Below, in pieces: positions 3,401 to 9,165 of a stretch of DNA of 64,000 bases (the stretch's first letter is position 1; each line of letters begins with the position of its first letter). This DNA is from Vicugna vicugna (Eukaryota). Both the position numbers and the translations under genes were made by a program. The DNA lies in assembly GCA_013265495.1 (NCBI GenBank), contig MU058206.1:560001-624000 (forward strand), given 5' to 3'. The notes below the pieces were generated by a model. The model did not search any database. It had not been told where the DNA came from and was given only the letters and a program-made list of their open reading frames with translations.

Positions 3401-6400
3401 CTCACATTGCTGGGACTTCTTGTGGCACTTGTGCTCTCTGGGGACCCAGACCCCTCAGGGAGGAAAGGAGTGAGGAGCTCCTGGCCTGGCCTGGCCCCAG
3501 GAGGGGTTGTGGATAATAGCTAATCCTCTCCTTTGCTTTCCCACAGGCTGAAGAGAGATCAAGCCACCTCTGAGTGAGTATGAAAATCTGGGTGCTGGGT
3601 GGGAGCTCCCCTGGGTTATCAAGCCGGACCCTCTGACCTCCCTGAGCAGCACAGACAAATCAGATTACTCTGGAATGATGGGGACCACCCTTGACTTGTG
3701 AGCTCCAGCCCTGAGCTGGCTGGAGCTGACTTGGCGTTCTCATCTTCTGGTGTCCACGGAAGAATCTAATGTGAGACAGGAGAGCCAGGCTTCAGGGATC
3801 TGCTGCTACCCTGGGGTGAAGGGTTTGAGAAGCAACTTAAGAGGTTTCCAGCACACGCACGCACATACACACACATTCGTACACAACCACATAACTACAC
3901 TTCCAGGTGAGTCAGACAAAGGGGGGTTCTAGGCCCCGTTCTGCCGTGCAATTTCTGTGGACCTTTCTGGCCTCAGTTTCTTCACCTGCAAGTGGATGTA
4001 GTTGAATGAGCTAATGTCTATGGATGCTTTCAATTGCTCCAGCTCTCCCCCTGGCCTTACTTCCATCTAACCTGTATTTTGCCCAGGTTCCAACCCCCCC
4101 CTCCACCGTAGCCTTACCTCTCCTCTGTGCCCCCATACCTCTTTGTCTCCCCTCCTCCCTTGAACCCCAGAGATTACAGGAAGCAGGTGTGAAATAAGTC
4201 AGGCTCCTTTTATTCGCACCTCACTGAGCCCATGGCAGGCCTGGAACCCCGGCCTACTTGCCCAGCCTGCCTGGTTAACTGCGGCGGCATTTGGCCATCC
4301 TGCGAACCCCCTTGATGAGCCGCTTGTGGCCCTGTTTGGAGCCCCTGAGCAACCAGCGCTGCCCAGGCTGGCGCTGGCCAGGCTGCCGCCGCCGCTGCAG
4401 TCTCTTAGCCTTAAGCCTGAACTTGGAGGCGTTCTTCTTGACCATGAGGAAGGAGGCCGAGGCCCCCTTGCCTGTCACCTGCTTGAGCATGCCCTTGTCC
4501 ACTAAGCCCCTGAGCACTCGCTTGAAACGCCAGGCCTTGCGTGTCATGTTGTAGCCCCTGGTGGCAACGGCCTTCTTCAGAGTGGCCAGGGACACGCGGT
4601 TGCGCGCCCCCTTTTCCGCCACAATCCCCAGGATCACCTTGGATATGCTGGGCTTCCGGTGGGCTTTGGTGTAGGCACGGCGCCCAGTCTTGCTTTTGCC
4701 AGGGAGCCCCGACATGCTGGCCTGCTGGCCAGCACCCAGGACACTGTTGGAGGCCAAGGGTGCAGATGGGAGCGGCAGTGAAGTGTCTTTCTGCATCTCT
4801 TCCTGGGGTAGATGAAGGGAACTGGGTGCGAGGACCTCCAGGATGGTGGCTGGAAGTCTCTACTGGGTTGCTCCTCGGTGGCTTAGGTGTGTCCCAAGTC
4901 CTGGTGCCCTTAGAGGCTTCCTCGTAGGGCTCTGGCCCGAGCCTTGCCCTGGGCAGCCAGAAGGAGGACCAAGGATGCTCACCCACGCTGGCCTCAGCAG
5001 ACTTGTGCCGCAGGTGCAGGGGGTAGTGAGGTTATCTCTGTGGTGACCTCAGGAGGACAATGTGAGGCCATCAGAATCCTGTGAGGGTCACAGTGGCCTC
5101 ATTGTTCCCTCCAGGGAGGAGCAGACAGAGATGCCTGGTAGCGTGGGCATCTGACATGACAGGCAGCCTGGAAAGAAGGGCTGTGGCTGAGTGAGCCTGG
5201 TGGGTGGACCCACATGGTGTGTGTGTGCCTGCCAGCTGATTTAAGGGTGTTCTGATAGCCCCATTTGTTGGTTTTTTTTTTTTTTTTGAGTAAAGGTAGA
5301 TTTATTTAGAGAGATACATACTGCATAGAGTGTAGGCTGTTTCAGAAGGCAAGAGAAAGGCCATGAGGTGTCGGGGTTGGGTGCTCAGGTTAAAGTAAAA
5401 GTAGATACACACTCCATAGACAGAGTACGGGCCATCTCTGACGCTGAGGGACCAAGAGAGGCTGCCACGTGTCATGGTGTTGCCAGTTTTTATGGGCTCG
5501 GTAGCTTCATATGCTAACAAGTGGGAAGATCATTCTAACCACCCTGGAGAAGGGGCTGGGATTCCCAGGAATTTGGCCACCGCCCACTCTTCGACCTTTC
5601 ACGGTTAGCCTTGGAGCTGTCATAGTGCTTGTGGTAGTGCCATTTACCAGGATATATTACAACGAGCATATAATGAAGCTCAAGGTCTGCGAGAAGTCAA
5701 ATCTCTCACCATATTGAGCCTCAAGGCTCACTGAGGGGTTGAATCTTCCACTATTTTGGTGTTTATTGCTGTGTCATTCCTTGAATGGCTGTACCCTGCT
5801 TCTTTCCCTCCTGTCTCATTCCACCCCCTCAGAGATTTTACTCCCAAAATCTTATGCGAGTGCTACTTCCGGGCTGAGTAGGAGCGTTGCCCCTGCTTAT
5901 CAGGGAGTAAAAATCTCTGAATGACTAACCTAGGGGCCCCAGGGGCAGGACAGCCTTTTGTTTTTGCATCAGAGGGCAATATGGGCTAGAATCCTCACGC
6001 AGCCATCATCTGATGTGAGACTGTTGCAACCTGGAAGACACAAACTTTACCAAGAAATTAGAAAAAGTTTAAGAAGGAAGAGTAGACTTATGACTATTAA
6101 CAGTAAATGAGACCAAATGTCTTAATGTACAGGTTTTCCTGTGCCACACATTATCGATCTGAAGATAAGCACTCATAGGGGCCAAATATTTCCTGGGCCA
6201 GTAACCCCAGTTTTAAACCCGCCGTTTTGACCCCACCATCTCAACCCATTGGGTTAAGAAGTGCAAACATTTTTAGAATCAGAATTACACCAACATTTAT
6301 GAACTTTTTATGGGGACTACAATTTCCAAAGTGAACAGAAATGTAGTTCCTTGATCTATCCAAGTTGATTTAATTCCTCGATCAACATTGATACAAAGCA

Positions 6401-9165: not shown

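Follow-up and report, generated by a model that had tools for sequence, protein, structure and literature searches.

A probable L1-made ERV1 retrocopy upstream of HILS1 in Vicugna vicugna: corrected limits and a splice acceptor for an antisense RNA

Processed pseudogenes of the HERV-W group are characterised, in the passages devoted to them, by a U3-R structure, a poly(A) tail, a TT/AAAA site and a duplication of 5-15 bp (PMC5016936, PMC5537654, PMC5775608). In one of these sources, 135 of 213 HERV-W loci were processed pseudogenes, more than half of which had no 5' LTR (PMC5016936). A passage of another names HERV-W as the sole human ERV group mobilised by L1, a statement which covers human groups (PMC5537654). 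Clusters of short ERV1 elements without ORFs are described for the alpaca, in passages that name no retrocopies (PMC8605555). ERV pieces that serve as terminal exons of lncRNAs are presented as common in human in part of a preprint (bioRxiv 10.64898/2026.04.29.721355).

The insert described here occupies positions 5269-6201 of the window (the whole 64,000-nucleotide stretch analysed), and measures 946 bp when one copy of its duplication is included (about 0.93 kb). We consider it probable, at roughly 75%, that this is a genuine L1-type retrocopy of an ERV with the corrected limits presented below; L1 would be the agent. As in the HERV-W processed pseudogenes, a poly(A) tail, an L1 nick site, a duplication of 5-15 bp and a gamma-type env were present and a 5' LTR was absent, and the LTR would likewise be U3-R without U5. 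Unlike these pseudogenes, the insert is camelid and not catarrhine, belongs to another LTR family and is shown as one copy only. The kind of insert is already known, and what is new is the splicing of an antisense RNA into it. This splicing resembles the ERV terminal exons of lncRNAs, as an ERV internal region and an LTR are spliced into a same-strand non-coding RNA, but it differs from the human cases in that the ERV piece would itself be an L1 retrocopy, and in that the transcript runs antisense to SGCA and would terminate immediately ahead of HILS1.

The 3' part of SGCA lies on the plus strand of the window, with PF20989 matched in one exon by a Pfam scan; the last SGCA exons were recognised presumptively. 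HILS1 (H1.9) is located on the minus strand inside an SGCA intron, as an ORF of 173 aa at 4275..4796 (PF00538, E=4.9e-14), and its protein was 97% identical to Camelus H1.9 and at most 78% identical to the remaining 107 of 108 homologues, as would be expected of a camelid other than Camelus. Beyond about 17 kb, the minus strand carries the 3' end of a fibrillar collagen gene (PF01410, Pfam scan), which we take to be COL1A1 by synteny. Three diverged copies of a 43-nt repeat, presumably MIR-like, were observed at 7852-7932, 8642-8750 and 9870-9912, and a short tRNA-like element with an A-rich end, which we assume to resemble a camelid SINE, at 14713-14800. The regions 46000-49000 and 52000-64000 are low in GC and T-skewed, and are probably minus-strand L1 sequence. 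No paper on the locus of the insert was found in a search of mainly openly accessible literature.

Read on the minus strand, the insert ends in a poly(A) tail at 5269..5287, made up of A16 (a T16 run at 5272-5287 of the window) and a C-interrupted A-rich end. The A16 begins 13 nt after an AATAAA at 5301-5306, which is the position of mRNA cleavage, as in ERV processed pseudogenes made by L1. An ERV1-type 3' LTR of U3-R structure (5288..5818, minus strand, ending 13 nt after the AATAAA) carries its own TATA-like CATAAAA at 5488-5494, and its edge is abutted by a polypurine tract at 5819..5830. The preliminary description had reported the A16, the spacing of the AATAAA, the TG at 5818 and the purine tract, and all of these are present in the sequence. 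It had also noted an env-tail-like peptide, which was confirmed by a search of one minus frame, with X at stops, against 1.84 billion protein representatives. Among the three hits, the fin-whale protein P0109 aligned to 6059-5871 at 52% over 63 aa (E=2e-6), and this protein carries PF00429 (TLV_coat) above the Pfam cut-off. The gamma-type env tail and 3' untranslated part at 5871..6059 (minus strand) are broken by stops and a frameshift, and the membrane stretch is missing. The env family gave no direct Pfam match in nine window frames, and word-based protein searches with the env-tail frames gave no match.

Contigs from four public runs (4 of 24 listed), one of DNA (X11) and three of RNA (X15, X16 and X18), were aligned to 4200-6890 at 80% likeness. 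Their depths should not be read as copy numbers, and some records are filtered out, which accounts for the gaps of X11 and X15 over HILS1. In X11 the depth was 86,000-183,000 over 5280-5819 against about 30 in the flanks, 3,800-5,700 over 5820-5999, 540-690 over 6000-6179 and 0-29 beyond. At 5818 the contigs diverged into unrelated sequence (132 in X11, 21 in X16 and 43 in X18, with an agreement of 0.34-0.41), and this edge, together with the adjoining purine tract, identifies the LTR as a 3' LTR. Despite the low overall agreement, the first three letters of the flanks of the family LTRs at this edge were identical in three runs, which hints at a target-site preference of the integrase of this ERV. 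No second LTR was found in the 64-kb window. The single LTR has internal sequence on one side and an A-tail on the other, which is the arrangement of neither an integrase-made provirus nor a solo LTR, and the env tail, polypurine tract and LTR are collinear with the 3' end of a retroviral mRNA, as in processed pseudogenes. The U5 would be missing from the LTR; the contig rows used exclude 5259-5296.

The LTR presumably resembles those of the MER41/MER4 group of ERV1, in its U3-R of ~530 nt, its layout of TATA and poly(A) signal, and the accompanying env tail and tract; a TTCN3GAA motif (STAT-type) lies in the U3 at 5777-5785. An 18-nt direct repeat is located inside the LTR at about 5312-5329 and 5403-5420. 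Scans with LTR words for family copies gave 0 and 1 hits in metagenomes, 0 and 0 in viral sequences and 0 and 1 in prokaryote genomes. The two hits, L001 and L002, shared only a short word with the LTR and were dismissed as chance; L001:1-3019 is AT-rich, holds a phage-like array of genes and has no relation to the insert.

The 5' truncation point of the insert was placed at 6198..6201 (minus strand). Pieces of paralogues ended at 6198 in both of the runs with contigs there (X11 and X18), where the contigs of the family that vary at 6159 and 6161 had their ends 39 and 37 letters further on, and the depth of the bin 6180-6269 matched pieces ending at this position. No readable case of a family copy continuing past 6201 into other viral sequence was seen. 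The insert had previously been given as 5265..6702, a size of 1.44 kb, which does not hold as paralogue homology stops at 6198. Its reading as a polyadenylated, 5'-truncated ERV mRNA copied by L1 is retained for the mechanism, but with a different 5' end, duplication and size.

Directly beyond this point, at 6202..6214 (plus strand), lies the 5' copy of a target-site duplication, of which the decayed copy after the tail is at 5256..5268 (plus strand; 9/11 letters shared with 6202-6212 and 10/13 with 6202-6214). The duplication is of the 5-20 bp expected at L1 insertions, though decayed, and is significant only jointly with the other marks. The nick would fall at 6214|6215 in TTTT/AA, and the TTTTAA at 6211-6216, the L1 nick consensus and counterpart of the TT/AAAA mark, is the only one in 5819-8900; of all 37 TTTTAA sites in the window, two match the left flank at 9/11. 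P0013, a gene model from pig, aligns to host flank sequence from 5253 downward, and the best match of its first seven residues within 5275-8900 was at 6222 (6222-6202). Its residues 1-6 required three base changes on a join at 6202, with a 2-nt offset, compared with eight on a join at 6703. This comparison was made at the protein level, on 6-7 codons of one spliced gene model, and the match alone is not significant, with 14 of about 64,000 positions scoring equally and 0.8 expected in the stretch searched. Placing the pig N-terminus at 5254-5274, or at the 6687-6705 copy, cost 10 changes each, like random sequence, and both placements were rejected. No homologue of 6202-6441 was found by a word-based protein search in one frame. 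Individually, the TTTTAA site, the duplication and the pig match are weak; their value comes from their clustering within 25 bp. The insert appears to be absent in pig, in which the join at 6202 would represent the empty site.

Removal of the insert would join 5244-5268 to 6215-6851, giving a segment of about 660 bp with 36% GC. The segment is bounded by a perfect 12-bp inverted repeat, with the left arm at 5244..5255 (plus strand) and the right arm at 6840-6851; 1 of 3000 random flank pairs reached 12 bp, in a test chosen after the repeat had been seen. The 6215..6851 part is AT-rich, low-copy host sequence at single-copy depth, with homologues (P0110, P0112-P0117) over 6442-6752. Its 6442-6791 portion was present in RNA contigs of X15, X16 and X18 and in contigs of other species (the P0110 cluster). 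On hAT-like criteria, the arms are perfect over 12 bp and the 8-bp flanks are alike at 5/8 positions, and no transposase family was found in the Pfam scan of the window frames. The segment is probably an old DNA-transposon relic. Folding of 6703-6860 gave z=0.01.

Three other accounts of the origin of the insert were weighed. The preliminary description took TTGTTGGTTT, at 5265-5274 and 6693-6702, as the target-site duplication of a 1.44-kb retrocopy. This repeat is indeed perfect over 10 bp, was found only at these two positions in the window (2/100 shuffles reached two matches), extends to 16 matches with a 3-nt gap and was the top-scoring direct match in the scan. Three of the ten letters of its left copy, however, belong to the T-run, its right copy sits inside the relic segment, and in simulations of three stretches, with 2000 sequences each, 2.9-4.3% of the sequences contained a match of this grade, so that its chance is 3-4%. 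If it were a duplication, related sequences should break at 6693-6702, and they showed no break. P0110 and six cluster mates (ENA/Logan contigs) aligned to 6442-6752, and the two of these seven that were long enough to reach the repeat, P0114 and P0117, both ran through it without a gap; residues 3-22 of P0117 fitted 6740-6681 gap-free with a minimum of 4 base changes in 60 nt. Both sides of the repeat are therefore one continuous piece elsewhere, and there is no junction. In addition, 6200-6692 was at single-copy depth, the nick at this junction would be non-canonical, as no L1 endonuclease TT/AAAA site is found there, and the eight changes required by the pig N-terminus at 6703 are like random. 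These boundaries are extremely improbable. A proposal that record 16 of X15 (6545-6791) bridges the junction, with a duplication of 16-19 bp and an empty site of 180 bp, was likewise overturned by the gap-free homologues and the pig join at 6202. It is also very unlikely that the insert is longer, with 6215-6851 representing a rare stretch from the interior of this ERV and the 5' end actually lying beyond 6750. The match of the seven P0110-cluster members, on several dozen contigs, to 6442-6752 might reflect ERV copies of other species, and the GC content changes at about 6851; but no camelid paralogues were seen there at 80% likeness (the filter may hide some), the inverted repeat pairs 6840-6851 with the far flank, the pig join falls at 6202, and neither P0114 nor P0117 has a Pfam family.

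An unlikely origin, too, is the remnant of an integrase-made provirus which has lost its 5' part, with an LTR that naturally ends in ...CTCA beside an A-rich target. The last letters of the LTR are indeed CTCA, the inverse of the four with which it opens, so that 5288-5818 plus one A is bounded by a TG...CA inverted repeat, and the duplication 5256-5268/6202-6214 is imperfect, with 3/13 letters differing. Retroviral replication, however, needs U5, and an LTR ending 14 nt after the poly(A) signal has none. Neither the A16 nor a duplication anchored at TTTT/AA is a product of integrase, and family homology ends within 3 nt of the duplication. 

Under the preferred reading of an L1-made retrocopy, the polyadenylated RNA of a gamma-type ERV (ERV1) would have been taken up by L1 ORF2p in a camelid ancestor. 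L1 would have nicked TTTT/AA at 6214|6215 and primed on the poly(A) tail. Copying would have been confined to the final 0.9 kb, comprising env tail, polypurine tract and U3-R, and would have produced a 13-bp duplication, now decayed. The target would have been the end of the older AT-rich relic of ~660 bp, in the SGCA intron and 460 bp upstream of the HILS1 start codon.

Over HILS1, X16 and X18 differed from the window by 21/963 and 16/691 letters, and these differences gave four of five Camelus residues in X16/X18; X15 showed the one that it covers. Record 12 of X15 was 97% identical to 5378-6048 (19 differences in 671, without gaps) and carried letters at 5847, 5890, 5988, 5999 and 6018 that are absent from most family contigs. 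This record represents the present insert joined to unique sequence of the locus, and X15, like X16 and X18, carries Camelus-type HILS1 alleles; the insert therefore predates the split of Camelus from the lineage of the window, which occurred about 16-17 million years ago.

Upstream of HILS1, a conserved block (leader and/or promoter) was identified at 4988..5134 (minus strand), to which translations of primate and muntjac gene models aligned at 77-80%. It contains TGAGGTCA, a CREM/GCNF (CRE/NR) site predicted by motif scan at 5044..5051 (minus strand). On its own, such a site drives spermatid expression (PMC2853129). The block and the site are intact, and the block lies 122-268 bp downstream of the insert. 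Against primates the block is more conserved (77-80%) than the HILS1 coding region (about 50-60%), and it is coding in primate gene models and closed by stops in the window.

It had been proposed that the insertion displaced the ancestral HILS1 upstream sequence by ~1.4 kb and placed a co-oriented U3 next to the gene, the regulation of which may thereby have been rewired. The conserved block stayed in place, and what was pushed away was the AT-rich transposon-like relic. The CTTAAAT heptamer put forward as a TATA element (5239..5245, minus strand) overlaps the left end of the inverted repeat of the relic and is not conserved, as pig P0013 reads P-Q-H where the window reads P-L-N and the pig codons cannot spell the heptamer. 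A role of the U3 as HILS1 promoter or enhancer in camelids has in its favour that the U3 and HILS1 are on the same strand, that the U3 has TATA-like and TTCN3GAA motifs, and that the missing U5 could weaken the poly(A) site. The longest HILS1 contig (4207-5169, depth 18, X16) ends at a distance of 87 bp from the insert, and coding begins near 5158 in primate models, so that a long leader may have its start no more than 90 bp from the insert. No RNA contig in the three runs joined the LTR to HILS1, however, and depth over 5190-5279 was zero in all three (filtered contigs, which cannot show start sites), including X18 with a depth of 3320 on HILS1 over 4257-4947. The evidence from contig ends is weak, because X16 and X18 disagree in where these ends fall, a contig does not reveal where transcription starts, and records are lost to the filter. 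X16 and X18 lacked the private letters of the insert at most scored sites, and the insert thus looks untranscribed where HILS1 is transcribed. With the conserved block and CREM/GCNF site intact and the heptamer not conserved, such rewiring is quite unlikely, and the insert is most likely close to neutral for HILS1. A higher word share in X15, considered as LTR read-through, fits instead coverage ending between 4947 and 5169.

The one observed activity of the insert is as splice acceptor for an RNA from beyond 10741, antisense to SGCA. Record 12 of X15 leaves the window sequence at 6048, and its loose end equals 10745-10774. This corresponds to a minus-strand GT-AG intron from 10740 to 6045, with a 4-letter ambiguity, a strong donor and a branch-point-like motif: the upstream exon ends at 10741..10774 with the donor GT at 10740-10739, and the acceptor AG is at 6045..6046, with the exon starting at 6044. 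The splice was seen in one of the three RNA runs, in a single contig of depth 43, and 30 of about 800 upstream letters in the record were seen. A genomic deletion is an unlikely explanation, as the last SGCA exons would be lost with it and 6545-6791 is represented in X15 as well. The RNA uses the env remnant as acceptor and traverses the LTR to at least 5378, where the contig stops; it would end at the AATAAA of the LTR. In the RNA as modelled, the longest frame opened by an ATG has 57 codons, and the RNA may arise from its own promoter or from COL1A1 read-through. The donor region 10720-10900 presumably resembles an L2 remnant, and with the acceptor in the insert both ends of the intron would come from mobile elements.

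As a more speculative and improbable extension, this ERV1 family might be a second, non-primate ERV group copied routinely by L1, and the insert might have been retained as a spliced terminal exon from a time preceding the camel-llama split, stopping upstream antisense or COL1A1 read-through transcription before HILS1 or, if the U5-less poly(A) site leaks, extending it. Were such copying routine, numerous 5'-truncated copies would account for the drop in family depth between 5820-5999 and 6000-6198.

The locus illustrates that a perfect short repeat can mimic a target-site duplication when the genuine one has decayed and is located 490 bp away. The insert provides a presence/absence marker for camelids, and is a further, non-primate instance of a route by which ERVs spread and which reviews associate with HERV-W. 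If the splice ends upstream transcription before HILS1, this would be a small example of a retrocopy with terminator function, set between COL1A1, SGCA and a spermatid gene.
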